A DNA stretch of 64,000 nucleotides from Gammaproteobacteria bacterium (GCA_965215365.1 CBDCDS010000003.1:2240001-2304000); one strand, 5' to 3'. Counted from the first letter of the stretch, positions 2,005-46,376 are shown. Numbers and translations are program-made. Notes: a model not told the origin generated them from the letters alone.

Positions 2005-2084
2005 CTCCCCGGTTCGTCATACCGGCTCCCCGGTTCGCCATGCCGGCCCCTCAGTGCGTCATGCCGGGCTTGGCCCGGCATCCA
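2005..2084. repeat. Three degenerate 21-bp repeats ending in a REP-like palindrome
   Basis: CTCCCCGGTTCG(T/C)CAT(A/G)CCGG units, then GTCATGCCGGGCTTGGCCCGGCATCCA hairpin. Confidence 0.6.
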
Positions 2085-8300: not shown

Positions 8301-8382
8301 CCCCGGCGCAGCGCCACCGCCCCCAATCTCCGAGCGCCCCGCCGGGGCGCCGGCACCCACCGCAACAGGAGGCACGCTATGA
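5269..8382 (+). CDS. Large surface adhesin, 3' part (Calx-beta, FN3, Pro/Thr linker, C-terminal autotransporter-like beta-barrel)
   Basis: Frame continues the Calx-beta motif VKTVDDDTDEPNGMLTA from 5269; PTTPAT repeats at about 6046-6150; amphipathic beta-strand C-terminus (WTLWGQG, HPYLSW). Confidence 0.8.
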   Translation, partial: VKTVDDDTDEPNGMLTARILALPALYTVGSPAAVSVAITDNDAPGAVSPPPAAPAAPTGLTATPGTGQVVLRWSAPSNNAITGYEYRWRTPPGSGPWGGWTAIANSGATTTTHTVTGLTNATAYGFEIRAVAGTVIGAASAEVRATPTAGAPVLPALSVTAGANITEGADATFTVTAVPPPAAPLAAALTVAQRGEFARPGQLGARTVTVPTGGTTTVTVSTVNDATAEAAGEITLTVGAGNGYTVATATATVTVTDNDTPPPATPTTPTTPATPTTPATPTTPTTPATPTTPPANDGGGGGGSSSSGGGGGGSPAAAASGTAAVTVTPPGALRVAVADAAATPDTDEGRVSYQLKLSRRPAGTVLITPVSSDSALATVSAPLQITPANWTAPHLVTVTGVRAGRVGITHRLRGGGYDGVPIPEVTVIVGDGGADPRKHRPAEPAAETDSAPGADSEPAPAAATETPPEAGADATPAATETTPATSAEAGTDTTPAPDATPDATPAVTPDAAPIPAATEATPDPAPAAEPVAPAPLPSGALAALARSHLNGARAVLGARSDAETQTHNHLTLAGRTLSWEALWGAAGAGAFGHAVDPIALSPALAHARPWADATGRCASWTTAACGMDLSAQARATNTGAAGLWETLTYQLLSGQLRAGGLDRALWQDSGFALTLSRTDEDGAGAGRRWTLWGQGHVHAVAALPAHSGLNTELRTGWVGLDTPIGDSARLGLALSREQDPNGLAAVHPYLSWSHGTTRIHALGGFGRSTGYDSPSPGAAPAPAQDGSIVPDSYPLGLTMGVVEVAHPLGHFAGMILDVRADSSWARLARLDDAGHTLQAETVRTVRIGLAAGGQLPPWSAHPELTLSPSLALHGRTDTGTGQSGQALELAGGLDSTHGLWQLTVKGRLLAMPGATGYRERGLRLAVSRRTPGPAGTSFSVESRWGDDAGATDTLWAERLHERRALSTRPTWALEVRAGHGWRLPGGAQLRGALSLGHAGRGADALLTLQLSPGAAPPPPISERPAGAPAPTATGGTL

Positions 8383-10304
8383 CGATTGCCTACGAACGTC
8401 CCGGGCAAGACGCCCCGGCTGGCGTTGACACTCCTTACACCCTGGCCGTGGGCGCACGCTTTCGCGGCCTGATTGCCACGCGCACCGATGCCGACTGGGT
8501 ACGGGTAGAGTTAACCGCCGGGGAGACCTACACCATGACCTTAGGCGGCATTGGCCCGGGGCCGGCCGGCGATACGGTGCTCACGCTGTACGATAACACC
8601 GGCGCGCAGGTAGCCCGTAACGATGATGTCAACTTCAGCGCCGGGGAGACCCACTCGCAGCTGACGTTTAGGCCCAATACCGATGGGATATATTACCTGC
8701 AAGCCGCAGTCTATACCCGTAACCCGACCCACGACCATGCCGGGCGCTATGAGCTGCGCCTGTATGATAGCGGCGCCTTCACGGCACGCCGGCTCACCGG
8801 CAGTGCTGAGGACGACCGTCTGCCGGCCGGCGACAGTGCCGGCCCCGGCGATGACACCTTGGACGGCGGCGGTGGCGATGACACCTTAGCCGGCGGCCCC
8901 GGCGGTGACAGGCTCATTGGCGGGCCCGGCAGTGACACCGCCTGGTACGGCGACTCCGGCGCTGGGGTGAGCATACGCTTAGAGACCGGCCGCGCACAGG
9001 GCGGGCACGCGACCGGTGACAGCTTCGGGGTGCAACGCATCACTGTTATCGATGCCGTCGGGCAGACCCGCGTGCGCAATGTCCCGGATGTTGAGAACCT
9101 CATTGGCTCAGCACATAGTGATGTGCTCATCGGTAATGCCTTGCCCAATGACTTAGACGGGGGCGAGGGCACTGATACCTTAGACGGTCGGGATGGCAAT
9201 GACTGGCTCACCGGCGGCCCTGGCGCTGATGTACTGCGCGGCGGGCCGGGCTTCGATGCGGTGAGCTACGCCGCCTCCCCGGCCGGGGTGACGGTGAACC
9301 TCACCAGCGGGCAGGCTGTCGGCGGGGACGCCGAGGGTGATACCTTCCCCGGGCGTCAGCTCGTCACCTGGACGGATGCCGCCGGGGGGGTGCGCAGTGG
9401 TCGGGTGGCCGACATTGAATACTTAGACGGCTCGGAGCATGACGACATTCTAATCGGCGCCTCCGGGGCCGATCGCCTTGAAGGGCGGGGCGGGGACGAC
9501 CGCCTTGCAGGGCGCGCCGGGGATGACCGCCTCGAAGGCGAGGCCGGGGCGGATGTGCTCAGCGGGGGTGAGGGTCAGGACACCGCCTCGTATCGCTACT
9601 CCGATGCCGGTGTCATCGTGCGCCTGCACAGCGGGCAGGCGCACGGCGGTCATGCCGAGGGCGATACCTTCACCCCGGTGGCGGGGATGACGGAGGGCGA
9701 GGCGCTGTTGGACATCGAGCACTTACACGGCTCGGACTACCACGACATCTTAGCCGGGGACGGGCGCGACAACACCTTAACCGGCGGCGCTGGCAACGAC
9801 ACCCTCTACGGCGGCCCGGCGGGCGGCGATGACACCCTGCACGGCGGGGCTGGCAATGACCGGCTGTTCGGTGGCAAGGGCAACGATACCCTGCACGGCG
9901 GGGACGGCCACGACACTCTGCGCGGCAACCTCGGCGAGGATACCCTGCGCGGCGGGGATGGTAATGATACCTTGCACGGCGGGGATGGTAATGATACCTT
10001 GCACGGCGGTGCCGGCGCTGACACCCTCACCGGCGGGGACGGCAACGATACCTTCATCTTCACCCCCGGCGCCGGCCACGACACCGTCACCGACTTCGGG
10101 CGCGGGGACGACCGCATTGACCTGAGCGCCTTCGCCGACCTCAGCACCGTCAGCGACTTAACCTTACAACCCGGCCCGCAGGGCCTCGTCATCGACTTCA
10201 CCGGGCACGGCGGCGGCACCCTCACTCTCACCGGCATAGCACAGGACGACCTTAGCGACAGTAGCTTCCTCTTCGCCGGCGCCGATGCCATGCTGCTGGG
10301 CTGA
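8379..10304 (+). CDS. RTX/hemolysin-type calcium-binding repeat protein with N-terminal PPC-like domain
   Basis: AGGAGG RBS and ATG at 8379 overlapping the adhesin TGA; many GGxGxDxL nonapeptides; DWVRVELTAGETY PPC-like motif; C-terminal DTVTDF..DRIDLS. Confidence 0.9.
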   Translation: MTIAYERPGQDAPAGVDTPYTLAVGARFRGLIATRTDADWVRVELTAGETYTMTLGGIGPGPAGDTVLTLYDNTGAQVARNDDVNFSAGETHSQLTFRPNTDGIYYLQAAVYTRNPTHDHAGRYELRLYDSGAFTARRLTGSAEDDRLPAGDSAGPGDDTLDGGGGDDTLAGGPGGDRLIGGPGSDTAWYGDSGAGVSIRLETGRAQGGHATGDSFGVQRITVIDAVGQTRVRNVPDVENLIGSAHSDVLIGNALPNDLDGGEGTDTLDGRDGNDWLTGGPGADVLRGGPGFDAVSYAASPAGVTVNLTSGQAVGGDAEGDTFPGRQLVTWTDAAGGVRSGRVADIEYLDGSEHDDILIGASGADRLEGRGGDDRLAGRAGDDRLEGEAGADVLSGGEGQDTASYRYSDAGVIVRLHSGQAHGGHAEGDTFTPVAGMTEGEALLDIEHLHGSDYHDILAGDGRDNTLTGGAGNDTLYGGPAGGDDTLHGGAGNDRLFGGKGNDTLHGGDGHDTLRGNLGEDTLRGGDGNDTLHGGDGNDTLHGGAGADTLTGGDGNDTFIFTPGAGHDTVTDFGRGDDRIDLSAFADLSTVSDLTLQPGPQGLVIDFTGHGGGTLTLTGIAQDDLSDSSFLFAGADAMLLG

Positions 10305-32476: not shown

Positions 32477-33481
32477 TCATTCCTGCTCGCCCCACTTACC
32501 CGCCGGCGGATGATAGCCTTCCCTGTCAGTCGTTCCCCCATTTGGGTGGTGAAATTGATCATGTCCCCCTAAAATATCCCTGGTAATGATGATCACATTC
32601 TCAATTTGCTCCGTTGCCAGTATCCGCAGCTGCTCGCTGAATGCCAACAGGTTGCCCTTGTCGGCCTGCTGTAAGGCTCTGAGATAAAGTCCTCTTGCCT
32701 CTGCTCTGATGAGGGGCGGTATTTCCCCCTTGCGTATATATACGTAAGCCATGAGCAAGCGCGAGATGCGCCCGTTGCCGTCCTGAAACGGATGAGTGCG
32801 GGCAAAACGTTGGTGCAACCAGGCGGCTTCGACATGGGTGGGTATATTTTGCTCACGGATAACCGAGTACAGTGAAAACAGTTTGTCCATCTCCGGCTGT
32901 ACCTGTTCGGGCGGACAGTATTCAAACAACACGCCATCCTCACGCAGCGGGTTGTTATCCTTTAATTTATATTCACCTTTGCGCTCAAAAGGCACCGATA
33001 CATGTTGTGCCTGTCCTGCTTCAATATGTATGCCGGGAAGAGTTCTCTGGTGCCGGGTAATCAGTTTATGCCAGGCTTTGATAGTGGCATGCGTTAATGG
33101 TTTATTATTCTTGATGTCCTTGAAAACCAGCTCCAGTGCTGTTTCCTGATCGGCAAGCAACCCTTTGATGGTGTCATCATCCACACTTTCTAGGGTGTGG
33201 GAGGAAACAACATTGCCCAGCCCCTCTGTGATCAACTGCTCGGTAATGCCGCCTTTTAAGGTATAAAGACCTTCAAGCTGTCCGGTTTCAATGGCAAAAG
33301 CCCGGCGGCGTTCCGTCAACCAGAGGTCCAGGATGGTTCTATCTACGGCTTTGTCCGTGAGCTGTTTCTGCAACTGCCGCCATTGTGATACCAGCTCATC
33401 GTAAACACGTGAATGCCATGTTTCAGCACCCTGGGGCAAGCCGGTTAAAGGCCGCCATTTTGTTTCGTCAGGGTTGTTCAA
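32477..33481 (-). CDS. Fic domain protein
   Basis: Canonical HPFQDGNGRISR motif; lower GC than flanks. Confidence 0.9.
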   Translation of the reverse strand: MNNPDETKWRPLTGLPQGAETWHSRVYDELVSQWRQLQKQLTDKAVDRTILDLWLTERRRAFAIETGQLEGLYTLKGGITEQLITEGLGNVVSSHTLESVDDDTIKGLLADQETALELVFKDIKNNKPLTHATIKAWHKLITRHQRTLPGIHIEAGQAQHVSVPFERKGEYKLKDNNPLREDGVLFEYCPPEQVQPEMDKLFSLYSVIREQNIPTHVEAAWLHQRFARTHPFQDGNGRISRLLMAYVYIRKGEIPPLIRAEARGLYLRALQQADKGNLLAFSEQLRILATEQIENVIIITRDILGGHDQFHHPNGGTTDREGYHPPAGKWGEQE

Positions 33482-34961: not shown

Positions 34962-36119
34962 TTACCCGGCTGCGTCCCGTAACTGTTCCACCTTGTCTGT
35001 CGTCTCCCAGGTGAAGTCAGGTTGCTCGCGACCGAAGTGGCCGTAGGCGGCGGTTTGCCGGTAGATGGGGCGTAACAGGTTCAGTTCACGGATGATGGCC
35101 TTGGGGCGCAGGTCGAAGAGCTCCTGCACCAGGGTTGCAAGGCGGGACTCTGGCAGGGCGCCGGTGCCGAAGGTGTTAACCATGAGGCTCACTGGCCGGG
35201 CAACGCCGATGGCGTAAGCGACCTGAAGCTCGCACTTTTCGGCCAGACCGGCGGCAACGATGTGCTTGGCCACATAGCGCGCGGCGTAGGCGGCGGAGCG
35301 GTCCACCTTGGACGGGTCCTTGCCGGAAAAGGCACCGCCGCCGTGGTGGGCAACGCCGCCGTAGGTGTCGACGATGATCTTCCTGCCGGTGAGGCCGCAA
35401 TCGCCCACGGGGCCGCCGATGACGAAACGCCCGGTGGGGTTGACCAGATAACGAGTATCATCGCCCAGCATCGCTACCGGCAGCACCGGCTTGATGATCT
35501 CCTCAATGACTGCTTCGGTCACGTCCTTATGGCTGACCTCGGCGTCATGCTGGGTTGACAGCACTACGGTATCCACTGCGGTCGGTCGGCCGTTTTCATA
35601 GCGCACGCTGACCTGGGACTTGGCATCGGGACGCAACCAGGGCAGTTGGCCGGACTTCCGGACTTCTGCCTGCTTTTGCACCAGCCGCTGCGCGTAGGTG
35701 ATGGGAAACGGCATCAGCACATCGGTCTCGTTGCAGGCATAGCCGAACATAAGACCCTGGTCACCAGCACCCTGGTCCAAGTCCATCCCTTCACCTTCAT
35801 TCACTCCCTGGGCGATATCCGGTGACTGTTTGTCCAGTGCCACCAGCACTGCGCAGCCGTTGCCGTCAAACCCCATTGCCGATGAGTCATAACCAATGTC
35901 GCAGATAGTCCGGCGCGCCACCTCCGGGTAGTCGATATTTGCCAACGAGGTGATCTCGCCGGCCAGCATGACCTGCCCGGTCGTTACCAGAGTCTCACAA
36001 GCCACCCGCGCCTGCATGTCCTGCTCCAGCAGGGCATCAAGAATGGCATCGGACACCTGGTCGGCGACCTTGTCCGGATGGCCTTCGGAGACGGATTCCG
36101 AGGTAAACAGGTAATTCAT
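34962..36119 (-). CDS. metK: S-adenosylmethionine synthetase
   Basis: [38 protein letters not shown]. Confidence 0.99.
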
Positions 36120-36190
36120 TATAGGGCGCTCCCGATTGATTAACTCGCTATTCTACCCGGTTGCCGGCGAGTTTTACAGTGTCGTCAGAG

Positions 36191-36227
36191 TTAGCCTGAA
36201 TACGGGTTGGTGAGATATGCGGGTTAG
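36191..36227. mobile_element. Mini MITE B
   Basis: TTAGCCTGAATA...GGTGAGATATGCGGGTTAG. Confidence 0.65.
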
Positions 36228-36283
36228 AGGCGCCCGATTGATGCTATACTGCCGCCCATGCCGGAGATGGAAACTGACATCTT

Positions 36284-37186
36284 GTGGAGCCGTTGATATT
36301 GAATGACTCTGGTGAAGCGTCCGTGGCCGCACACGAGCGCTCGGTGCAGGAGTACTACGATGTTATGACCAAGGGGTTCCACCTGCAATGGAACCCCGAT
36401 CATATTCACATGGGAGTATTCGAACCCGGGGAGTGCCCTAGGCATAACGAGCACATGAAAGACTCGACCGGGCTGAACCGCGCGCTGGAGCGCATGATCG
36501 AGCTGGTGGTGGCCCCGGCCGCGATTGCGGAGCGCCACCAGGTGGTTGATGCCGGCTGCGGAGTCGGGGGGACGGCAATTCATCTGGCTCGCACGCGCGG
36601 GTGCAGGGTCACCGGCGTCAACCTGAGCAGGTTGCACCTGGAGCTGGCTGACAGGAAGGTTGCCGACGCCGGGCTGGAGGGTCGGGTTGATTTCAAGTAT
36701 GCGGATTGTTCTCAACAGCTGCCGTTCGCCGATGCTTCCGTTGACGTGCTTGTCAACATCGAAAGCGCGCGCCACTACAGCAACCGCGAGCGCTTCCTGC
36801 GGGAGGTGCGCCGCATACTCAGGCCGGGCGGAAAAATCGTTGCCTCAGACTGGATGGCGCGCGCCGGCCTGCAGCCCGAGCAGTACCAGAGATTCATTCG
36901 CCCGCTGTCCCCGGCCTGGGCACTGTGCGACTTGGAAAGTCAATCCACCTACACCCGGCTGTTACACACAAATGGCTTGGAAGTTCTGGAATTCGACGGC
37001 TTTGCCGGCGGGGAACTCGATAACCTGCAAATCATCATGAATACCTACCAGTCACTCCGGCTGTTGCGCCACAGCGGCATGAGGGCGCCCACCCTGCTTA
37101 GCCTGATAGCGCGCATAGAGAAGCTCTGCAACGCCTGGCGTAATGGTTACTTCGATATCAGGCGTTACTGTGCGGTGAAAGCGTAA
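36284..37186 (+). CDS. Class I SAM-dependent methyltransferase (tocopherol/sterol/natural-product type)
   Basis: HIHMG, VVDAGCGVGG, VTGVNLS, LPFADASVD, RRILRPGG. Confidence 0.9.
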   Translation: MEPLILNDSGEASVAAHERSVQEYYDVMTKGFHLQWNPDHIHMGVFEPGECPRHNEHMKDSTGLNRALERMIELVVAPAAIAERHQVVDAGCGVGGTAIHLARTRGCRVTGVNLSRLHLELADRKVADAGLEGRVDFKYADCSQQLPFADASVDVLVNIESARHYSNRERFLREVRRILRPGGKIVASDWMARAGLQPEQYQRFIRPLSPAWALCDLESQSTYTRLLHTNGLEVLEFDGFAGGELDNLQIIMNTYQSLRLLRHSGMRAPTLLSLIARIEKLCNAWRNGYFDIRRYCAVKA

Positions 37187-37256
37187 AGCAAATAGTGATT
37201 GAAAACGATCTGCTGGTATGGTAAAATCGCCTTCCGGTTAATCGGAGACATTACAG

Positions 37257-37532
37257 ATGCAGAATCAGGTTGCGTCCGTCCTGAAAACGGCGGAAGACAT
37301 GCGTGCCCACCTGGTCGATAAGGCGCTTGCCGACGAGGATTTCCGGGCGCGGTTGCTCGCAGATCCCAAGGGTGTCACCGCCGCTGAGTTCGGGATACAC
37401 ATTCCGGACATCCTTGATATCCAGGTGCATGAAGCCGACAAGTACACGTTTCACGTGATACTGCCGCCCGGCCCCGAGCTGGATGAGGAGCAACTGGAAA
37501 TGATTGCAGCCGGGCTGCGCTGCTGCATTTGA
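37257..37532 (+). CDS. NHLP (nitrile hydratase-like leader) RiPP precursor; predicted core LRCCI
   Basis: KALADEDFRARLLADPK...HVILPP..ELDEEQLEMIAAG leader ending in a double-glycine-type AG site; GGAGA RBS. Confidence 0.9.
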   Translation: MQNQVASVLKTAEDMRAHLVDKALADEDFRARLLADPKGVTAAEFGIHIPDILDIQVHEADKYTFHVILPPGPELDEEQLEMIAAGLRCCI

Positions 37533-37645
37533 CGGCACGGTGAACGCTGCCGGTCCTGGCCCCGGCACCTGTAGCATGGTCGCGCGTTTTATGTTAGTTT
37601 GCGCGCGCAGGTTTATGCGCAAGTCCGTCTTGCACTCGATTCTCC

Positions 37646-38194
37646 ATGCTGCAAAACCCTTTTTCCGAAGATCTCGCCGCCAGCAAAGGCAAGCGTCAGC
37701 AGCTTGACCGCCTGCTGCGCGTCACCACCCCGCATGAACGTTTCATGCTGGCCGGTATCGGCCTGTTGTTGTGCGCAGGTCTGGCCTGGACTTTGTTCGG
37801 CAGTGTCACCCACAGCATTGTCCGGGACGGTATCCTGCTGGGAACGAGCGCGCATGGAACGCAAAACCAGACCCTGCAAGCCCTGTTGTACTTGTCGTCT
37901 GCTCAGGCGCAGGCCTTGCAGGCGCCGGCGCCGGTCTCGATTGAGATCACCCTGCCCGATGGCTCGAGCCAACGCCTGCCGGGCGAGGTGACCGCGCTGC
38001 GAGACGGCGGTCACTGGCTGCTGCCTGCCGCTGCCGGTTCGCCGAGTCGGGTTGAGATCACCCTGCCGCGCACAGCAAACCTTGCCGTGGCAGAGGAGAT
38101 ACCGTGCCGCCTGCACATCGTCCTGGGCCGGCGGGCACCGGTGCAGCTGTTCCTGCATGGCTGGACGCGGCCACAACCGCCGCCGGGAGGCTGA
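37646..38194 (+). CDS. NHLP system secretion accessory protein (short HlyD-like)
   Basis: QQLDRLLRVTTP, TM segment W..FGSV, C-terminal APVQL; position before the two NHLP ABC genes. Confidence 0.75.
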   Translation: MLQNPFSEDLAASKGKRQQLDRLLRVTTPHERFMLAGIGLLLCAGLAWTLFGSVTHSIVRDGILLGTSAHGTQNQTLQALLYLSSAQAQALQAPAPVSIEITLPDGSSQRLPGEVTALRDGGHWLLPAAAGSPSRVEITLPRTANLAVAEEIPCRLHIVLGRRAPVQLFLHGWTRPQPPPGG

Positions 38195-38199
38195 CAACG

Positions 38200-40389
38200 G
38201 TGCCTCGAAAACCAGCCGCAACGCCACGCGCGCGGCGTGTGGTCACCCCCCTGCGGTTGCAAACGCATACGACCGAATGCGGCGCTGCCTGCATCAGCAG
38301 CGTGTTGGCTTTTTTCGGCTACAATGCGCCGCTCAGCGAGCTGCGCGAACACTGTGAAGTAAACCGTGACGGCTCCTCGGCCGCAGCCCTGATGCGGGCC
38401 GCCAGGCACTACGGTCTTGATTGCAAGGGGCGCCTGACACAGGCGTCGGACTTTTGGAAGCTGCCACTGCCGCTGATCCTGTTCTGGGAGTTCAATCATT
38501 TCCTCATTCTGGAAGGTCTTGACCAGAATCAGGTGTACCTCAACGATCCGGCCTCGGGCCGGCGCAAGTTGTCCTGGGCCGAATTCAACCAGAGCTTTTC
38601 CTGGGTTGCGCTACACTTCAAACCCAAGCCGGAATTCCGGCCGGGAGGCGTGCGTCACAGCATGGCACAACGGCTTTCGGTCTGGCTGCAGGGCGCCTGG
38701 GGCGCGCTGGCGTATGCCTTGGCATGTGGCCTGATGCTGGTTGTGCTGGCCCTGGTCACACCGGTGGCGCTGGGACTATTCGTGGATCATATCCATGCCG
38801 GTAATGAATCCTGGGGCGCCTTCCTGGCCGCAGCACTGGCCGCAGCGGCGCTACTGGCGGCGGGGCTGACCTGGCTGCAACAGCGCTGCCTGCTGCGGTT
38901 GTCCACACGCATTTCAATCGTCGCCGGCGATCATGTCGTCACCCGGCTACTGTCTCTGCCGGTGGAATATTTCAACCACCGGATGATTGGCGATCTGGTC
39001 GCCCGCGTCGGGTCTATCGACAGAATTGCCAAGGCGCTGTCGGAACAGTTTGTAGCACTGGTCATCGAAATAGTTATGAGCGTGGTCTTGCTCGCGGTGA
39101 TGCTGGTCTATGACGTGATGCTGGCCGTTACCGTGCTGACGCTGGCGGCGCTGATGCTGGCGCTGATGCAGCTGCTCAGGCGTCGCCGGACTGAGGCCAA
39201 TTATGCCTTGCGACATGAACAGGACCTGCTGCTCGGCATTGGCTCCCTGTTGTTGAATCAGATAGAAAAGCTGCGCATCAAGGGCGAAGACGACAACGCC
39301 TTCTCCCGCTGGGGCGGCCACCAGGCCCGGGAACTGGCAGCGCGCCAGCGCCACGCCGAACTCGGCCTGCTGGACTCTGCCATACCGACGCTGTTCCTGC
39401 TGCTGGTCAACGCGGTGGTGTTGGCGTTGGCGGCAACACAGGTTATTGCCGGCGCCATGACTCTGGGCGCGCTGGTGAGCTTTTATCTCCTGGCCGCCAT
39501 GTTCCTGGAATCTGTGGGACGCTGGGCGGAACTGTCCCGATGGCGCCGGACACTTGAGACCGACATGCAGTGTCTAGATGACATTACGGAAGCGGCGCCA
39601 GACCGGACTCCACAGCGCGTAGGGCGACCGACGGGCGCCATTGCCACCTTAAACGGCCGGCTGCGACTGGCTGGGCGGCTGGAACTGCGCAACCTCAGCT
39701 ACGGCTATAATCGCCAGCGACCGCCATTGGTCAAGGCTTTTAACCTGACCATTGAACCGGGGCAACGCATCGCCGTGGTGGGGCCAAGTGGTTCAGGCAA
39801 ATCGACCCTGGCGCGCCTGGTGGCTGGCGTCTATCAGCCCTGGTCGGGCGAGATCCTGTTCGACGGTTTCCCGCGGCGGGAGATTCCCGACGAGGTCATG
39901 TCCCGCTCACTGGCCATGGTTGACCAGGATGTCATCCTGTTTTCCGGCAGCGTGAGAGATAACATTACCCTGTGGGACAGCGCCGTACCGGATGACGACC
40001 TGATCGCCGCGGCCCGGGACGCCCACATCCACGATGACATCATCAGTCGTGCGCGCGGCTATGCCACGCAGATTACCGAAGACGGGAGTAATTTCAGCGG
40101 CGGCCAGCGCCAGCGGCTGGAAATTGCCCGGGCCTTAGTCAGGAACCCGACGCTGTTGATACTTGATGAGGCCAGCAGCGCGCTGGACACCGTGACTGAA
40201 ATGGGCGTGGAAAATGCCCTGCGGCGGCGCGGCGTGAGTTCCCTCATCATCGCCCACCGGCTGAGTACGGTGCGTGACTGCGACCTGATCATCGTACTCG
40301 ACAAGGGCGAACAAGTGCAGCGCGGCAGCCATGATGAACTGGTGGCAGACAAAGACGGGCTGTATCACCGGTTGCTGCTGGCAGACTAA
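38200..40389 (+). CDS. NHLP family ABC exporter with C39 peptidase/permease/ATPase
   Basis: TPLRLQTHTTECGAAC, FWEFNHF, NDPASG, GPSGSGKS, FSGGQRQRLEIARAL; GTG start with GGGAGG RBS. Confidence 0.93.
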   Translation: MPRKPAATPRARRVVTPLRLQTHTTECGAACISSVLAFFGYNAPLSELREHCEVNRDGSSAAALMRAARHYGLDCKGRLTQASDFWKLPLPLILFWEFNHFLILEGLDQNQVYLNDPASGRRKLSWAEFNQSFSWVALHFKPKPEFRPGGVRHSMAQRLSVWLQGAWGALAYALACGLMLVVLALVTPVALGLFVDHIHAGNESWGAFLAAALAAAALLAAGLTWLQQRCLLRLSTRISIVAGDHVVTRLLSLPVEYFNHRMIGDLVARVGSIDRIAKALSEQFVALVIEIVMSVVLLAVMLVYDVMLAVTVLTLAALMLALMQLLRRRRTEANYALRHEQDLLLGIGSLLLNQIEKLRIKGEDDNAFSRWGGHQARELAARQRHAELGLLDSAIPTLFLLLVNAVVLALAATQVIAGAMTLGALVSFYLLAAMFLESVGRWAELSRWRRTLETDMQCLDDITEAAPDRTPQRVGRPTGAIATLNGRLRLAGRLELRNLSYGYNRQRPPLVKAFNLTIEPGQRIAVVGPSGSGKSTLARLVAGVYQPWSGEILFDGFPRREIPDEVMSRSLAMVDQDVILFSGSVRDNITLWDSAVPDDDLIAAARDAHIHDDIISRARGYATQITEDGSNFSGGQRQRLEIARALVRNPTLLILDEASSALDTVTEMGVENALRRRGVSSLIIAHRLSTVRDCDLIIVLDKGEQVQRGSHDELVADKDGLYHRLLLAD

Positions 40390-40407
40390 CCCGCAGAGCT
40401 CACCAAT

Positions 40408-43311
40408 ATGAACTCGCCACAAACCTGCAAACATGCCATAACAGTCGGTACGCCGGTGCCCTGTGCCGCCAACCTGCCGTTGGACATGGATGATTCGCAA
40501 TCCGTGTGGTTTGTCGAACACGGCGCCATAGACGTGTTTCTGGTCGAGCGCCAGGACGGTATCGATCAAACCGCGCCGCAACACTTGTTACGCGCCGCGG
40601 CCGGCCGCCTGTTGCCCGGCGTCGCTGCGCAACGGCAAGACACCACCCTGGGCCTGATCGCCAAAGGTTTACCCGGCACGGTATTGCGGCGGCTGCCGGT
40701 TTCCGGGCTGGCCGCGTTGGCCGCCGACGAACTGGCGCAACAGGTCGATGCCTGGGTGATGGACTTGTCCGCCGCCTTGTCCCGCGACCTGGTGACCCCC
40801 CCGCGTGCGGACCTGCTCATCGAACCGGCGCCGGCGCCGGCGGCAATGACCGGCCGGCTGTCAACGCGCCGCGACGTAGTCTGGCTGAGGCAACCGCCGC
40901 CGGGCGCGAGTTTGTACATGGAACTGGTGGACCCGGCGCTTGGCGATAGCGCCGACACAAGCGCCATACTGGCGCTGACGCCCCATGTCTGGCTGACCCT
41001 GCTGGAAGCGGCAGAGCTGCCCGTTTACGCGTCCGCAACGCTGGCCGCCGAGCAGCGGCTGTTGCCGGCCCTGGCAGACTTCCACGCCCTAGCGTTCGCG
41101 ACGGCGCGGCTCAACCGCAGTCTGGCGCTCATCGATCAGGCCAATCTGGAACGGGAACGCACGGCCGGGCGGCGTAGCGATGAAGAAGATGCCCGGTGGC
41201 GCCTGTTCAACCTGTACGGCTTGGCGCAACAGCAACCGGACACCGCCCCGGGCGCGGCGCTGTTTGAGGCGCTGAAACTTATCGGCCAGCACGAGGGTAT
41301 CGAATTCGTCTGGCCCGCGCCGCGGCCTGAGGACGCTCCCGACATTGATCTGGAGCAGGTACTGCAGGCCTCCGCCACGCGCCGGCGCCAGGTGCGTCTC
41401 ATGCCTGAGGACAAGTGGTGGACCGGCGACAGCGGCGCGCTGCTGGCGTTCCGCAATGATAACGGCGAGCCGGTGGTATTATTGCCCGGCGACCTCGGTG
41501 GTTACCGGGAAGTCGAGCCGCGCACCCGGCGCCAGGCCCGGGTAACGGCTGCACGCGCAGCCGCGTTGCGGGCGCAGGCCTGGCAGTTCTACCCGGCGCT
41601 GCCGGCCGGGCGCGTTGGCATACGCGAGCTGCTGCAGGTCGCCGGGAAGGGTTTGCCGGCAGCTTTGACACTGTGCACACTGGCCGGATTGGCGGGCGGC
41701 CTGATCATGCTGTTACCGGCCGTGTTGGCAGGCATTATCGCCGACCGGGTTATCCCGGGCGGCGAGCTCAGCGTGTTGTATCTGTCCGCCACCCTACTGG
41801 CCTTGCTGGCGCTGCCGGCGGCGTTGCTGTATGTGCTGCGCGGCAGCGCCCTGATGCGTCTGGAAGGGCGTGCTGCGTCCCGTCTGGAAGCGGCTTTCTG
41901 GGACCGTTTGTTGCGGCTGCCGCCGCATTTTCTGGAACGCTATAACACCGGCGACACCGCGCTGCGCAGCCGCGCCTTCCAGCGTGTGCGCGATGCACTG
42001 CAAGAGACGCTGACCAGCGCCGTGCTGGCGGTGATTTTCCTGTCACCGGCGTTATTGCTCATCTCCTGGTACGACGCCAGACTGGGCGCAGTATGCACAG
42101 CCCTGGCGCTGCTGTCGCTGTTGCTGACGGTGGCATTAGGTTTGAGCCAGCTGCGGCCGCGCGGCCGCGCGCTACGAGTTGCCAGCCACCTCAGCGGCAG
42201 GCTCAACCAGCTCATAAACGGCATTGTCAAACTGCGCGTGACCGGGGCGGAAGGATCTGCGTTCGGGGTGTGGGCGCAACACTACCATGACCAGAAACGC
42301 GCCGAGTTGCGCCACGGCGCCAGAGACGCGCACTTACAAGCTTTCAGCGCGGCGTTGCCATTTCTGGCCGCCGCCGTACTGCTGCTGGCGGCCACCCTGC
42401 CAGGGCCAGCGGCTATTCCGGTCGGGGAGTTTCTGACCGTGTTCATGCTGTTCCTGCTGTTCCAGTCGGCAGTGGCGCGGCTGGGTGCCTCATTCAGTAC
42501 GCTGGCCACCGTCATTACCGCGCTGGACCAGGTGCGGCCATTCCTCGACGAACCCCCGGAACTCAGCGTCGGCGGGGAATCCGCCGGGGAGTTGCGCGGG
42601 GCAATACGGGTTGACCATGTCAGCTTTCGTTATGACTCCGACAGTCCACTGGTGCTCGACGATGTATCAATAGATGCCCGCCCCGGTGAATTCATCGCCA
42701 TTACCGGCGAGTCCGGCTGCGGCAAGAGTACGCTGTTCAAACTTCTGACCGGCTTGGAGCAGCCGGATACCGGTTCGATATACTACGACGGACGCGAGCT
42801 CAGGCGCCTGAATATCAAACAGGTGCGGCGCCAGCTTGGCGTGGTGCCACAGAAAATTCAGTTGCACCCGCTGGACTTGTGGGACAACATCGTCGGCAGC
42901 CATGAACAGGCCAGTGACGAGGACGTCTGGCACGCAGCCGGTCTCGCTTGCGTGGATACCGATATCAAATCCATGCCGATGAAGATGTTGACGACGGTGG
43001 GTCATAACCTCATATCGGGCGGCGAGGCGCAATGTGTGAGCATTGCCCATATACTGCTGCGCAACCCCCGGATTCTGCTGCTCGACGAAGCGACCAACCT
43101 GCTGGACAATGCGCGCCAGACGACCATCATGGAAAACGTGGAGAGGCTGAACACCACCCGGATCGTCATCGCGCACCGGATATCCACCCTGCGGCAAGCC
43201 GACCGCATCTATGTGCTGAAAGACGCCAGGGTCATCCAGACCGGGACTTTTGAGGAGCTATCGGCAATGCCAGGAGCTTTCCGCGACCTGATACAACGAC
43301 AGCTTGTCTGA
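40408..43311 (+). CDS. NHLP family ABC exporter permease/ATPase (second subunit)
   Basis: VWFVEHGAIDVF N-terminal domain, WWTGDSGALLAF, GESGCGKS, ISGGEAQ, LLDEAT. Confidence 0.92.
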   Translation: MNSPQTCKHAITVGTPVPCAANLPLDMDDSQSVWFVEHGAIDVFLVERQDGIDQTAPQHLLRAAAGRLLPGVAAQRQDTTLGLIAKGLPGTVLRRLPVSGLAALAADELAQQVDAWVMDLSAALSRDLVTPPRADLLIEPAPAPAAMTGRLSTRRDVVWLRQPPPGASLYMELVDPALGDSADTSAILALTPHVWLTLLEAAELPVYASATLAAEQRLLPALADFHALAFATARLNRSLALIDQANLERERTAGRRSDEEDARWRLFNLYGLAQQQPDTAPGAALFEALKLIGQHEGIEFVWPAPRPEDAPDIDLEQVLQASATRRRQVRLMPEDKWWTGDSGALLAFRNDNGEPVVLLPGDLGGYREVEPRTRRQARVTAARAAALRAQAWQFYPALPAGRVGIRELLQVAGKGLPAALTLCTLAGLAGGLIMLLPAVLAGIIADRVIPGGELSVLYLSATLLALLALPAALLYVLRGSALMRLEGRAASRLEAAFWDRLLRLPPHFLERYNTGDTALRSRAFQRVRDALQETLTSAVLAVIFLSPALLLISWYDARLGAVCTALALLSLLLTVALGLSQLRPRGRALRVASHLSGRLNQLINGIVKLRVTGAEGSAFGVWAQHYHDQKRAELRHGARDAHLQAFSAALPFLAAAVLLLAATLPGPAAIPVGEFLTVFMLFLLFQSAVARLGASFSTLATVITALDQVRPFLDEPPELSVGGESAGELRGAIRVDHVSFRYDSDSPLVLDDVSIDARPGEFIAITGESGCGKSTLFKLLTGLEQPDTGSIYYDGRELRRLNIKQVRRQLGVVPQKIQLHPLDLWDNIVGSHEQASDEDVWHAAGLACVDTDIKSMPMKMLTTVGHNLISGGEAQCVSIAHILLRNPRILLLDEATNLLDNARQTTIMENVERLNTTRIVIAHRISTLRQADRIYVLKDARVIQTGTFEELSAMPGAFRDLIQRQLV

Positions 43312-43346
43312 AACACAACCGGCCAGCGGGCGAGAAGAGAAATTCC

Positions 43347-43420
43347 CTAACCCGCATATCTCACCAAGTCGCTTGTTGCCTTGTGAAACATAATTGCTCT
43401 CAATAAGTTTACGATAGCTA
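43347..43420. mobile_element. MITE B copy
   Basis: CTAACCCGCATATCTCACCAAGTCGCTTGTTGCCTTGTGAAACAT, near-identical to 24105 onward; right boundary approximate. Confidence 0.75.
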
Positions 43421-43527
43421 CTACCAATGATTTATTGACCGGCCGCGGCGGGCTGGTGAAACTTGCATGGCAAATATGATACGCTGTGCCTTCGATTCTC
43501 CAGCCCAATACAATCAAAACAAGTTAT

Positions 43528-43764
43528 ATGACGATGCAGAAAAATGTGGAAGAGGTACTGGCGCCCTTGGCCGGCGCGGTATGGAAAATTACGGTGGCTG
43601 TTGATGAAGCAGTCGAAGAAGATGATGAAGTGCTTATCATCGAAGCCATGAAGATGGAAACGCCTGTGTTTGCGCCCGGTGACGGTAAAGTGAAGGAGGT
43701 TTACGTCAGTGCAGGCGATCAAGTGGAAGAAGATCAGCCACTACTGTCTATCGAAACGGGATAA
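43528..43764 (+). CDS. Biotin carboxyl carrier protein (stand-alone)
   Basis: APLAGAVWKI, EAMKME biotinylation motif. Confidence 0.9.
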   Translation: MTMQKNVEEVLAPLAGAVWKITVAVDEAVEEDDEVLIIEAMKMETPVFAPGDGKVKEVYVSAGDQVEEDQPLLSIETG

Positions 43765-43765
43765 C

Positions 43766-44923
43766 ATGTTTTTTGAGCTGACCGAAGAGCAGCAACTGGT
43801 GCAAGACACTGCCCGGCGTTTTGCGCTGGAGGACATTGCGCCGACCCTGGAGGAAGAAGAACGCAACCACGAGTTTCGGCTGGAACGGGTGGCGCGCATG
43901 GGCGAGCTTGGTTTTTTCTCCTGCGCGTTACCGGAGACGCTGGGCGGCAACGGCATGGGCTTCCTGGAATCCGCCCTCATGGCGGAACAGGTCGCCCGGG
44001 TATCGGCCTCCTGGCGCCTGCCGTTCAACATGCAGAACCTGGGTCCGGCCTTGTCGGTGGCGCAATTCGGCACGCCAGAGCAACAGCAACAATACATCCC
44101 AGGCTGGATTAACGGGACGAAGATAGGCTTCTTTGCCATGACCGAGCCCGATACCGGTTCGGACGTAGCCAGTATGAAGACCTATGCCATTGACAAGGGC
44201 GACCACTTTGAGCTGCACGGCAACAAGCTGTGGATTTCCAATGCCCATATCGGCGATGCCGGACTGTTGTATGCCTACACCAACCGAAAGCTGGGCAACA
44301 AGGGCATCAGTTGCTTTATCATCGAGCCAAAAACGCTGGAGGGCTGCACCACGCGCCCCATCGAAACCAAGCTGGGGCTGCACTGCTCGCCCACGGGCGA
44401 GTTTGTCTTCGTCGGGGCAAAGATACCCAAAAGTGCCCTGCTCGGCGAGTTGAACGACGGCTTTAAGATGTGCATGTGGCAGCTGGGCAATACCCGCATC
44501 GGTTGTGCTGCCGGCGCCCTAGGCGTGGCTGGCGGCGCGTTGCAACTTGCCATCGACTATGCCAACGAGCGCAAGCAGTTCGGCCAGCCCATCGCCAAAC
44601 ACCAGATGATCCAGGCCCAGCTCGCCGACATGGTGGTGGAACATCAGGCCGCGCAGCTGCTGGTCTATAAGGCGGCCTGGCTCAAAGACCAGGGCACGCC
44701 CAACCAGTACGAGACGTCCGTGGCCAAGCTGGCGGCCTCGGAAGCGGCCGTCCATGCCGCGAACGAGTGCATGAAGATCTTCGGTTCCTACGGTTACTCC
44801 ACCGAATACCCGGCAGAACGATTTTACCGTGACGCCAAGTCCCTGCAGGTGGTGGAAGGCACCTCCAATATCCAGCGAGTGATCATCGCCAGCATGGCCT
44901 GCGGGCACAGTTCCAATCGGTGA
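43766..44923 (+). CDS. Acyl-CoA dehydrogenase
   Basis: FAMTEPDTGSD, KLWISN, ERKQFG, GSYGYSTEYPAERFYRD, VEGTSNI. Confidence 0.93.
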   Translation: MFFELTEEQQLVQDTARRFALEDIAPTLEEEERNHEFRLERVARMGELGFFSCALPETLGGNGMGFLESALMAEQVARVSASWRLPFNMQNLGPALSVAQFGTPEQQQQYIPGWINGTKIGFFAMTEPDTGSDVASMKTYAIDKGDHFELHGNKLWISNAHIGDAGLLYAYTNRKLGNKGISCFIIEPKTLEGCTTRPIETKLGLHCSPTGEFVFVGAKIPKSALLGELNDGFKMCMWQLGNTRIGCAAGALGVAGGALQLAIDYANERKQFGQPIAKHQMIQAQLADMVVEHQAAQLLVYKAAWLKDQGTPNQYETSVAKLAASEAAVHAANECMKIFGSYGYSTEYPAERFYRDAKSLQVVEGTSNIQRVIIASMACGHSSNR

Positions 44924-44945
44924 GGCATCATTTCATCTCCGGCAC

Positions 44946-46259
44946 ATGAAAGTTGCGCTTAAATCCCTGGGTTGTCGCCTGAACGAAGCTGAGCTGGAGC
45001 ATTGGGCGGCGGGGTTCGGGGCGCACGGCCATCAACTGGTCGAGGTCACGGAGCGCGCCGATCTGGTCGTCATCAACACCTGCGCGGTGACCGCTGAGGC
45101 GGCAAAAAAATCCAGACAACTGATCCGGCGCACGCAACGCCATAATGCCACGGCCAAGCTGGTGGTAAGCGGCTGCTACGCCAGTCTGCAACCACGGCAG
45201 GCGGCGCAACTGCCCGGCGTTGACCTAGTGGTGGACAACCTCGACAAGGAGCGTCTGGTTGACATCGTGACCAGCAAATTTGCCGGAGAACTGGCCGTTG
45301 ACACCCTGCCCGCCACTGCCACCGAACCCGGCGCCAATGCCCTGTTTGCGCGCGGGCGCAATCGGGCCTTCATCAAAGTGCAGGATGGTTGCCGGCACAA
45401 ATGCACCTTCTGTATCGTTACCGTCGCCCGCGGCACCGAGCGCAGCCGCCCGACGCCGGCGCTCGTGGATGAGGTTAACCGGGTGCACTCGGACGGCGTG
45501 CTGGAAGTCATTCTCACCGGCGTGCACCTCGGTGGCTACGGGCGCGAGGCAGGTACAGATCTGGCAGGCCTGATCAAAACCCTGCTTGCTGAAACCGATA
45601 TACCAAGAATACGCCTGGGCTCACTGGAACCCTGGAACATACCTGATACTTTCGTCACCTTGTTCGAGAACCCCAGATTGATGCCGCACTTACACCTGCC
45701 CTTGCAGAGCGGCAGCGATACCGTGCTGCGGCGCATGGGCCGGCGCTGCCGGCGGGCGGAGTTTGTGCGTCTGGCGAGAACTCTGAAAGAGCATGTGCCG
45801 AAGCTGAATATTACCACCGACATCATCGCCGGCTTCCCCGGCGAAACCGCGTCGGAATGGCAACAAACCCTGGATTTCTGTCGGGAAAACAGGTTTTCCC
45901 ACATCCACATCTTTCCCTATTCAGCTCGGACCGGCACCCGCGCGGCGACGCTGCCGACCCAGGTGTCAGCAACGACAAAGAAACAGCGCTGCCAGGAATT
46001 ACAGCGTCTGGGACAACGGCTGAAACACGATTATATGCGACAGCACCTAGGACAGCGCTGTGAAGTACTGGTGGAAAACGATGCCGGCAGGATTAACGGC
46101 CAACAGGTGTATTTCGGTTACTCACCGAACTACCTGCGCACCGCCATCCCGCGCTCAGGCAAGGTGCCACGCCCCAACAGTATCATCGAAGTACAACTCA
46201 GAGACTATGCTGAGGACATGGCCACGCTGGTGTCAGCTCAGCTGCATTCCGTAGAATAA
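44946..46259 (+). CDS. mtaB: tRNA t6A37 methylthiotransferase
   Basis: LGCRLNEAE, INTCAVT, KVQDGCRHKCTFC radical SAM motif, FPYSARTGT. Confidence 0.92.
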   Translation: MKVALKSLGCRLNEAELEHWAAGFGAHGHQLVEVTERADLVVINTCAVTAEAAKKSRQLIRRTQRHNATAKLVVSGCYASLQPRQAAQLPGVDLVVDNLDKERLVDIVTSKFAGELAVDTLPATATEPGANALFARGRNRAFIKVQDGCRHKCTFCIVTVARGTERSRPTPALVDEVNRVHSDGVLEVILTGVHLGGYGREAGTDLAGLIKTLLAETDIPRIRLGSLEPWNIPDTFVTLFENPRLMPHLHLPLQSGSDTVLRRMGRRCRRAEFVRLARTLKEHVPKLNITTDIIAGFPGETASEWQQTLDFCRENRFSHIHIFPYSARTGTRAATLPTQVSATTKKQRCQELQRLGQRLKHDYMRQHLGQRCEVLVENDAGRINGQQVYFGYSPNYLRTAIPRSGKVPRPNSIIEVQLRDYAEDMATLVSAQLHSVE

Positions 46260-46315
46260 AGGCCACCTCCATGTTGCATAAGGCAACAAGCGACTAGGTG
46301 AGATATGCGGGTTAG
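46257..46315. mobile_element. Hybrid MITE at the mtaB stop codon
   Basis: TAAAGGCCACCTCC...AAGGCAACAAGCGACTAGGTGAGATATGCGGGTTAG. Confidence 0.75.
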
Positions 46316-46376
46316 GATGGTCCTGATTGGAAAACCCTCGCGCTTGAATAATTTCGGCGCGCGGTATATTCTGGGT

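Follow-up and report, generated by a model that had tools for sequence, protein, structure and literature searches.

Gene organization of the locus

Whether an NHLP-type precursor locus with a five-residue core, and with a methyltransferase as the one local tailoring enzyme, constitutes a self-contained minimal RiPP pathway is the question raised by the window, that is, the whole analysed stretch of 64,000 nucleotides from a Gammaproteobacteria bacterium (GCA_965215365.1, CBDCDS010000003.1:2240001-2304000). The genes that had been described here, metK, a methyltransferase (MT), an NHLP precursor, a HlyD-like adaptor and two ABC transporters, were all found in place as ORFs, with MT, precursor, adaptor, ABC1 and ABC2 all on the plus strand, as listed below.

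34962..36119, minus strand: metK, S-adenosylmethionine synthetase (Pfam S-AdoMet_synt N, M and C domains)
36284..37186, plus strand: MT, class I SAM-dependent methyltransferase, 300 aa (Methyltransf_11, E 2.4e-21)
37199..37227, plus strand: candidate sigma-70-like promoter (consensus match alone)
37257..37532, plus strand: precursor ORF, 91 aa (TIGR03793 leader_NHLP)
37257..37514, plus strand: NHLP leader, 86 aa (TIGR03793, 63.9 bits; precursor alignment)
37515..37532, plus strand: core LRCCI and stop codon (translation; comparison with the closest relative)
37646..38194, plus strand: HlyD-like adaptor, 182 aa (weak TIGR03794 match; recurrence in other loci)
38104..40389, plus strand: ABC1, with C39 peptidase, permease and ATPase (Pfam and NCBIfam profiles)
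40408..43311, plus strand: ABC2, NHLP-type permease/ATPase (Pfam and NCBIfam profiles)
43347..43409, no strand assigned: dispersed repeat of about 62 bp (copy search in the genome; contig breaks)

The metK gene adjoins MT and is divergent from it, as previously noted, with 164 bp to the MT start, and the reported local absence of YcaO, radical SAM, LanM and halogenase genes was borne out by an ORF and Pfam scan, which found none of them from metK to the housekeeping genes past 43311. Judged from sequence comparison, the locus is probably one half of an srp-family cluster that was split by genome rearrangement, the half responsible for precursor, methylation and export; since the ring-forming enzyme lies 392 kb away in the same genome, it is read as a rearranged variant of a known family rather than as a self-contained minimal pathway.

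Precursor, leader and core

A search with the NHLP-leader HMM placed the precursor above the curated cut-off of TIGR03793 (63.9 bits against 50.9; 63.5 bits in the genome scan), and because this model had matches in 0 of 14 control genomes the hit is not a chance one; with a Peptidase_C39 domain in ABC1, the proposed pairing of an NHLP precursor with a C39 exporter holds. The leader of 86 aa ends in ...EEQLEMIAAG and combines an LxxxxL motif (LDEEQL), whose role in NHLP leaders is described in the available text of PMC10858898, with an AAG double-glycine-type end. Both elements precede the C-terminal core in the cleavage region, which reads ...LDEEQLEMIAAG/LRCCI, and G86 is invariant across 32 aligned precursors. 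LRCCI is one base apart from the LCCCI of the closest relative, with CGC (Arg) against TGC (Cys), so the Arg at position 2 is read as a single-base change and not as a designed feature; it is not a one-off error, because contigs assembled in two studies (three public runs) span 35500-38211 and contain zero differing letters. Natural variation of the core was also observed in the family (LSCCL, RCCC, LSSGA and others). The core is free of Trp, as first described, and no halogenase exceeded the cut-off anywhere in the genome (best Trp_halogenase match 18.1 bits). Directly upstream of the precursor, the candidate promoter (TTGAAA, a 17-nt spacer and TAAAAT with TG) matches a sigma-70-like consensus at 10 of 12 positions and is kept in the closest relative.

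The probable distant half of the cluster

The genome-wide search for YcaO and RRE-containing enzymes and for further NHLP precursors returned one YcaO and one second precursor. The sole YcaO (328 bits) is located on the same contig (C3:1.88 Mb), 392 kb from the locus, and represents a fused E1-like/YcaO cyclodehydratase of 769 aa (TIGR03882, 135 bits; TIGR03604, 280 bits) with a wHTH domain, so that azol(in)e RiPP machinery (E1-like/RRE plus YcaO) is present in the genome outside the window. Two NHLP precursors exceed the cut-off, and the second, with the core FGVALCC, stands beside the YcaO; as the two leaders are just 51% identical, service of both precursors by one YcaO is an assumption. 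A search of the genome for a SagB-type dehydrogenase with TIGR03605 (cut-off 78.4) gave 18.2 bits at best, at an unrelated site.

A conserved protein of 387 aa (PT-like) adjoins the distant YcaO and the second precursor; it has no Pfam or NCBIfam match, and its profile found nothing better than E 0.24 among PDB sequences. Its AF2 model (pLDDT 91) displays a repeating two-strand/two-helix pattern, as read from the listed elements, and was matched by Foldseek to EpzP, IptA, PagF and CloQ (E 5e-7) and by VIA-align to MpnD (Z 16.8, rmsd 4.6 over 306 residues). Among the matches listed (about 40 from Foldseek and about 50 from VIA-align), all are ABBA prenyltransferases, with Z of 13.2-16.8 over 255-311 residues. 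As modelled, the protein has the ABBA (PT-barrel) prenyltransferase fold, which by itself does not prove prenyl transfer. Conserved residues, given as sequence positions and not placed in the barrel, are R208, R213, R231, K307, H336, K338 and Y352. Two other candidates near this half were set aside: ORF194 (L004:9089-9673), downstream of the PT-like gene, matches no family, lacks homologues in the other loci and may be a non-gene, and a KamA-like radical SAM gene lies, in the relative, on a flank far from the cluster and is not counted as a cluster gene. A 59% homologue of this radical SAM protein was observed near the precursor of one comparison locus, L026.

Closest relative, rearrangement and selection

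In the closest relative, for which two loci overlap on one record (L005 and L054), all cluster genes are contiguous and next to metK, the set comprising metK, MT (94%), the precursor PRE1 (92%, core LCCCI), adaptor, ABC1, ABC2, YcaO (92%), a second MT, a precursor with RCCC, and the PT-like gene (86%), with the YcaO orthologue directly after ABC2. The regions that flank the two separate halves here lie next to each other in the relative, and metK-MT-YcaO was likewise found in L006 and L007. One inversion alone cannot account for how the gene order departs from that of the relative, and at least two events are needed. Comparison with the relative gave dN/dS of 0.11-0.22 and dS of 0.17-0.32 in seven genes including MT, PRE1, ABC1, ABC2, YcaO and PT-like; both halves of the cluster are under purifying selection, except for the adaptor, which evolves near-neutrally (dN/dS 0.59). 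The headline of the preliminary description, a minimal cluster with MT as the sole tailoring enzyme, was not supported, given that the genome also has, at a distance of 392 kb, a YcaO, a PT-fold protein and a second precursor, and that the halves are contiguous in the nearest relative. As to the refuting condition set there, a deletion derivative of a known srp-type BGC, the locus is a derivative by rearrangement, but its ORFs are intact and dN/dS is mostly low.

Export genes and cluster edge

The adaptor matches positions 6-56 alone of the 421-position TIGR03794 (30.3 bits, cut-off 156.2) and consists of the N-terminal segment and one hydrophobic stretch, a membrane helix by eye, without the long periplasmic hairpin region; this short form, of 177-195 aa, recurs in seven other loci. 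ABC1 carries Peptidase_C39 (E 3e-31), ABC_membrane and ABC_tran and scored 814.6 bits against TIGR03796, slightly below the equivalog cut-off of 853.3; as the family match begins at ORF residue 48, the true start is probably near 38200-38245. ABC2 scored 652.8 bits against TIGR03797 (cut-off 709.4) and has an N-terminal extension of 280 aa with no family match. All three export genes thus fall under the NCBIfam equivalog cut-offs, and with the domain architecture present they are best read, from these profiles, as divergent relatives of the NHLP export system. The repeat of about 62 bp right after ABC2 has about 140 copies in the genome and marks the cluster edge. Short-read contigs over 35500-45500 break at this repeat, so the junction downstream of ABC2 is not independently bridged in this three-contig assembly.

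Distribution of the methyltransferase

The MT matches generic methyltransferase families alone in Pfam and NCBIfam and falls in generic methyltransferase clusters alone in the ESM Atlas, and its nearest solved relatives are small-molecule methyltransferases (MitM, 2e-34; 3bus, 1.9e-33; glucose O-MT, 6.7e-33), with the lanthipeptide methyltransferase LahSB matching weakly (3.5e-8). In a tblastn tally, one or more srp parts lie within 7 kb of MT in 59 of 79 loci, a YcaO does so in 38/79, and the metK-MT pairing is retained in 7/79. At MT identity of at least 40%, srp parts accompany MT in 58/72 loci, in line with the MT-precursor linkage first proposed, and the record titles of the MT-bearing loci name at least eight high-level lineages. 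The precursor directly adjoins MT in six loci (L008, L017, L050, L054, L059 and L064). For MT loci without srp parts, NHLP precursors were found elsewhere in 5/5 genomes tested, and in three of these the precursors are accompanied by PT-like, long-MT, adaptor and ABC1 genes. In metagenome loci, MT was found next to four of ten cores without a final W and next to none of the 18 with one; nine of these 18 loci span 11.5 kb or more. Across homologous clusters with cores that lack terminal Trp, the MT family recurs as a member. Prediction of an MT-precursor complex gave no answer (score 0.00) and is evidence neither way.

Comparison with known systems

Clusters of the srp type (sponge-derived RiPP proteusin; Nguyen et al. 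2021) reportedly comprise the SrpE precursor, the SrpC YcaO and the SrpI brominase. The kinship with srp clusters that had been proposed, with the core LCCCW, YcaO SrpC and brominase SrpI, agrees with the available text of PMC10858898 and PMC10286304. Shared with srp are an NHLP leader with LxxxxL and an AG site, a Cys-rich core of very few residues that ends the precursor, and two NHLP-type ABC transporters; the YcaO is 53-67% identical to YcaOs of LCCCW-core metagenome loci (the loci compared, not SrpC itself), and the PT-like protein shows 33-40% identity to the corresponding proteins of those loci. By tblastn, orthologous precursor, YcaO, PT-like and ABC-pair genes are common to the LCCCW-core loci L097, L101, L103, L107, L113 and L114, and in L103 a Trp halogenase stands beside the LCCCW precursor. 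On these homologies, the locus is assigned to the srp family in the wide sense of homologous clusters. Unlike the strict published srp, it has the core LRCCI and a class I MT instead of a SrpI-type Trp brominase, its YcaO is 392 kb from the precursor, and it has neither the FA_desaturase-GlnE fusion nor the MMPL genes seen in fuller clusters.

The methanotroph mpr cluster (MprE1-10, YcaO MprC, FMN oxidase MprD) uses, according to the text available of PMC12455567, one RRE-containing YcaO for several NHLP precursors with differing cores, recognition proceeding via the leader alpha-1 helix and the LxxxxL motif. The present genome likewise has one YcaO and more than one NHLP precursor with different cores; in contrast to mpr, no MprD-like azoline oxidase was found, so azolines are expected and not azoles, the cores are much shorter, and the genome encodes an MT and a PT-fold enzyme. 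Aeruginosamide B is a short, linear, azole-containing natural product. In its cyanobactin pathway, AgeMTPT attaches a prenyl group at the N-terminus and forms a methyl ester at the C-terminus (PMC10496146, available text). The pairing of prenyl transfer with SAM-dependent peptide methylation would be a functional analogy alone; in AgeMTPT both activities are fused in a single protein whose substrates are cyanobactin peptides without a leader, whereas here two genes stand 392 kb apart and an NHLP precursor would lose its leader at export. The NHLP/Nif11 TOMM export systems (Haft et al. 2010) are reportedly represented by TIGR03793, 03794, 03796 and 03797. Precursor, C39-ABC, second ABC and HlyD-type adaptor share one operon as in those systems, but the adaptor has 182 aa against a 421-position model and the ABC scores are slightly below the equivalog cut-offs.

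Proposed pathway and alternative explanations

The precursor would be transcribed from its own promoter, and the distant YcaO would bind the NHLP leader and convert Cys3 and Cys4 of LRCCI into thiazolines, azolines being expected rather than azoles because the genome has no SagB-type oxidase. The ABBA-fold enzyme may attach an isoprenoid, and MT, with metK adjoining, would move a methyl group from SAM onto the leader-bound peptide. The C-terminal carboxylate is a tentative guess at its target, since MT fills the niche of the C-terminal-Trp brominase of LCCCW clusters and since both methyl esterification and prenylation of peptides are carried out by AgeMTPT in the aeruginosamide B pathway. Cleavage after AAG would then fall to the C39 domain of ABC1, with ABC1, ABC2 and the short adaptor exporting the pentapeptide. 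From these steps a bis-thiazoline pentapeptide is expected, probably methylated and perhaps prenylated; among the products first suggested, the one in best agreement is a bis-thiazol(in)e formed by enzymes that are encoded elsewhere.

It is very improbable that MT is the sole tailoring enzyme of a self-contained pathway making a methylated and/or vicinal-disulfide linear pentapeptide without heterocycles: the empty interval from metK to the housekeeping genes past ABC2 and the promoter-like site of the precursor would suit it, but the genome's YcaO has its 92%-identical orthologue right after ABC2 in the relative, a YcaO accompanies MT in 38/79 loci, and LRCCI is one base from LCCCI, a member of the CCC-core family that SrpC cyclodehydrates (PMC10286304, available text). 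Somewhat less remote, though still unlikely, is a metK-linked small-molecule MT standing beside the RiPP genes by chance, as its generic family matches, its small-molecule nearest relatives and three metK-MT pairs without an srp part within 7 kb (L035, L036 and L041) might suggest. The genomes of those three have srp-type clusters elsewhere, however, and the 58/72 co-occurrence across at least eight high-level lineages, the six loci with directly adjoining precursors and the absence of MT from all 18 W-core loci argue for a role in the cluster.

A decaying remnant, its pathway inactivated by the split and by the Cys-to-Arg change and its genes heading for loss, has very little probability. The split architecture, the lost Cys of the CCC triad, the relaxed constraint on the adaptor (0.59) and the lack of the FA_desaturase-GlnE, MMPL and long-MT genes seen in fuller clusters are what decay would leave; against it stand intact ORFs throughout, the low dN/dS of the seven genes at dS 0.17-0.32, a promoter kept in the relative, detached MT modules recurring in other genomes and the natural variation of cores in the family.

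Implications for the srp family

An ABBA prenyltransferase-fold enzyme, unassigned until now, is conserved in the LCCCW and non-Trp branches alike, and fuller clusters encode proteins that join an NHLP domain to an alpha/alpha-toroid domain with weak resemblance to terpene cyclases, together with MMPL and LolA-like genes that may export lipids. As a speculative reading built on the modelled fold, srp-family peptides might be prenylated lipopeptides and not just azoline/bromo-Trp products, with MTs capping the C-terminus in the non-Trp branch in place of the brominase; if true, this genome holds the minimal set for that branch, namely YcaO, prenyltransferase, MT and exporter. A literature search, to which the original srp description was external, found no paper linking a methyltransferase or prenyltransferase to srp clusters, the word 'methyltransferase' occurring 0 times in the main text of PMC10858898 and in PMC9426513, PMC12455567 and PMC12537861, and PMC11832590 not applying it to RiPPs. 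According to the available text of bioRxiv 10.1101/2023.06.09.544420, srp-type clusters rank in sponge symbionts with the RiPP clusters of widest distribution, and transcription of their precursor genes is among the highest found there. Calling a RiPP cluster 'minimal' from a single window can mislead where clusters are split. The genome represents a pared-down, experimentally tractable srp version, with two cores of five to seven residues, one YcaO, a PT-fold enzyme, an MT and an exporter, and the MT-versus-brominase split by C-terminal residue, together with the prenyltransferase fold of a conserved gene outside any Pfam or NCBIfam family, provides a handle on the mature molecules.

Organization of the window locus

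All six genes named in the preliminary description were found where it had placed them, and its precursor assignment was upheld by the NHLP leader model of NCBIfam, where PRE1 scores 63.9 bits against a cut-off of 50.9. The features of the upstream part are as follows.

36284-37186, methyltransferase (MT), matching generic class I SAM-MT families only
37199-37227, predicted sigma-70-like promoter, 10/12 consensus match, immediately 5' of PRE1
37257-37532, NHLP precursor PRE1, 91-aa ORF
37646-38194, HlyD-like adaptor, 182 aa, matching just the first ~50 of the 421 positions of the NHLP HlyD model

The leader/core junction of PRE1 reads ...LDEEQLEMIAAG/LRCCI, and the promoter 5' of it is also kept in the nearest relative. 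In the C39-peptidase transporter (ABC1) the C39 domain is intact and the family match begins at ORF residue 48; the second transporter (ABC2) is of the NHLP 'ABC2' type. Both score slightly below their equivalog cut-offs. metK is divergent from MT and lies 164 bp upstream. The other edge of the locus was set at 43311 because genes for a biotin-carrier protein, an acyl-CoA dehydrogenase and a MiaB-like enzyme come after ABC2. A Fic/DOC family gene (32477-33481) is located two genes upstream of metK. Elsewhere in the window, 2054-10304 is a GC-rich stretch (69–72%, against 54–63% across the remaining window) with three large ORFs on the + strand (1099, 1024 and 724 aa); their products match fn3, Calx-beta, PPC and, nine times, RTX calcium-binding repeats, and are likely secreted adhesin-like proteins.

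A distant YcaO half in the same genome

The window represents C3:2240001-2304000 of a 2.73-Mb genome in three contigs. The YcaO and further NHLP precursors that the preliminary description had proposed to seek there proved, in a genome-wide scan, to be one YcaO and a second precursor adjoining it, giving exactly two NHLP precursors in the genome. This second precursor (PRE2) ends in ...GG/FGVALCC, has a leader 51% identical to that of PRE1 and is encoded at C3:1.88 Mb, immediately 5' of the YcaO gene and 392 kb away from the window locus. The YcaO (769 aa) comprises a wHTH domain, a TIGR03882 leader-binding domain and a TIGR03604 cyclodehydratase domain; its gene is followed by a 387-aa ORF for which Pfam, NCBIfam and PDB-sequence searches gave no match. 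Neither a Trp halogenase nor a SagB-type dehydrogenase was detected above cut-off in the whole genome, and no second copy of the MT or 387-aa family was found in it. Just 5' of PRE2, a three-gene group (L004:14092-16900) encodes a D12 adenine DNA methyltransferase, an EcoRV-like endonuclease and a truncated UvrD-like helicase with Zn-ribbons; it is possibly a mobile or defence island that borders the rearrangement.

Closest relative and origin of the split

A profile of 34 MT sequences recovered 367 relatives in species-representative genomes, from which 79 loci were retained. The closest locus (L005 and L054, overlapping on a single record; MT 94% identity) has the order metK, MT, a 3-kb insert, PRE1 (92%, core LCCCI), short adaptor, ABC1 and ABC2, followed by YcaO (92%), a second MT (49%), an RCCC-core precursor, an FA_desaturase-like gene and the 387-aa family (86%); the order metK-MT-YcaO was also observed in L006 and L007. 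The insert, which is missing from the window, carries three minus-strand ORFs (L005:7900-10877; 194, 268 and 163 aa) with no Pfam match. The core codons are CTG CGC TGC TGC ATT in the window versus CTG TGC TGC TGC ATT in the relative, so that LCCCI to LRCCI is a single transition, and no deviating letter was seen at this site of the window in the contigs of three sequencing runs drawn from two studies. Since the flanks of the two halves (PhaC, KamA-like and msrA on one side; BCCP, ACAD and MiaB-like on the other) adjoin each other in the relative, gene order indicates that the contiguous cluster is ancestral and the split in the window genome derived, and at least two rearrangements are needed between the two arrangements. 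A dispersed repeat of ~62 bp with ~140 genome copies is present directly after ABC2 (43347-43409) and 3' of the MiaB-like gene (46271-46316), with a 21-nt piece in the metK-MT spacer (36207-36227); its summed contig depth is very high, short-read contigs break there, and the relative has related copies too, its insert included. These copies are possible recombination substrates.

Against the relative, dN/dS values were 0.12 for MT, 0.22 for PRE1, 0.19 for ABC1, 0.22 for ABC2, 0.16 for YcaO, 0.22 for the 387-aa protein and 0.11 for metK, and the adaptor (0.59) was the sole gene with relaxed constraint among those compared; the window locus does not appear to be decaying. A short adaptor (177–195 aa) recurs in seven other loci at 31–73% identity, and is therefore a stable variant rather than a fresh truncation; a ~295-aa form was observed in eleven loci.

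Linkage of the methyltransferase to srp-type clusters

Within 7 kb of MT (tblastn, 79 loci), a precursor was detected in 42 loci, YcaO in 38, the 387-aa family in 44, ABC1 in 25, ABC2 in 33, metK in 7 and any part of the srp (sponge-derived RiPP proteusin) clusters in 59; at MT identities of at least 40%, 58 of 72 loci had an srp part, bearing out the MT-precursor co-occurrence earlier put forward for checking. By record titles, the MT loci span Gamma- and Alphaproteobacteria, Nitrospirales, Binatia, Thermodesulfobacteriota, Poriferihabitaceae, Acidobacteriota and Gemmatimonadaceae. Twenty loci are without srp parts, several of them on short contigs, and NHLP precursors were present elsewhere in all five such genomes examined. 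Three of these five are the genomes of L035, L036 and L041, loci with MT beside metK; their precursors (LSCCA, LSCCL or LSCCV) are accompanied by ABC1, a short adaptor, a member of the 387-aa family and a long MT. A detached metK-MT module thus recurs. The genome of L049, titled Arenicellales, contains 37 NHLP leader model matches (35 above cut-off) dispersed along one 3.5-Mb chromosome, an unusually large dispersed family.

Scanning metagenomes with an alignment of the precursors yielded 45 loci, 28 with srp-like cores. The MT family was found in none of the 18 with Trp-ending cores (LCCCW (15), LCCWW, RCCCSW and RCCCCW), nine of which are at least 11.5 kb long, and in four of the ten without terminal Trp (53–55% identity), namely L089 (LSCCL), L090 (LCCCGI), L094 (LSCCL) and L112 (RCCC), each with an additional longer MT; three of the other six are 6.2 kb or shorter. 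YcaO (53–67% identity) and the 387-aa family (33–40%) are common to the LCCCW loci, and a Trp halogenase adjoins the precursor in L103. The cores adjoining MT genes are LCCCG[IVL], the commonest, WCCCG[NTQ], RCCC, LCCC, LCCCI, LSCCM, LSCCC, LSSGCG and LSSGA, and none of them ends in Trp.

The 387-aa partner and fuller clusters

An AlphaFold2 model of the 387-aa protein built from 32 homologues (pLDDT 91) exhibits a repeating two-strand/two-helix pattern, as read from the listed structural elements. The Foldseek matches listed were all ABBA aromatic prenyltransferases, including EpzP (5e-7), IptA, PagF and CloQ, and VIA-align gave Z 13.2–16.8 over 255–311 residues among the matches listed, with MpnD at Z 16.8 (rmsd 4.6, 306 residues aligned). 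The model thus shows the ABBA prenyltransferase fold, and prenyltransferase activity may be expected. Two or three paralogues of this family (34–66% identity to the query) were observed in each of L033, L056, L048, L046 and L059, with RCCC cores, and in L013, with no detected precursor.

In fuller srp-type clusters (L022, L024, L008, L089, L090 and others), a nucleotidyltransferase fusion of 810 aa (FA_desaturase-GlnE) is encoded along with an MMPL/RND transporter and a longer second MT (473–545 aa); three of the LCCCW loci have genes for LolA_like/DUF1329 proteins. Four genes for ~430-aa proteins (L107:11517-12809, L103:16328-17632, L114:16442-17740 and L043:9219-10535) all sit within srp-type or MT loci; an NHLP leader-like N-terminus was seen in three of the four, that of L043 being known by tblastn only, with weak, sub-cut-off alpha/alpha-toroid matches to Prenyltrans in L107 and SQHop_cyclase_C in L114. 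The fusion, MMPL, LolA-like and ~430-aa proteins were not found in the window genome.

Proposed pathway and placement of the locus

Most likely, the YcaO would act in trans on PRE1 and PRE2 to form thiazolines, after which the prenyltransferase-fold enzyme may add a prenyl group, MT would methylate the peptide, and the C39 domain would cut after AAG for export. The nearest solved MTs by sequence are small-molecule enzymes and do not discriminate between methylation sites. The C-terminal carboxylate is a tentative first choice, weakly favoured since it is the only group common to all MT-linked cores, is reachable while the leader is still attached, and MT takes the place of an enzyme acting on the C-terminal residue. 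AgeMTPT is a precedent for prenylation paired with methyl esterification (PMC10496146), and a leader-dependent RiPP prenyltransferase is likewise known (PMC12715784).

The observations of the preliminary description and the srp kinship it proposed are retained, but its self-contained minimal pathway is not, as the genome's YcaO, PRE2 and 387-aa gene lie far outside the locus. Rather than a minimal pathway of a new category, the locus is a split and pared-down form of the non-Trp, MT-bearing branch of the srp family.
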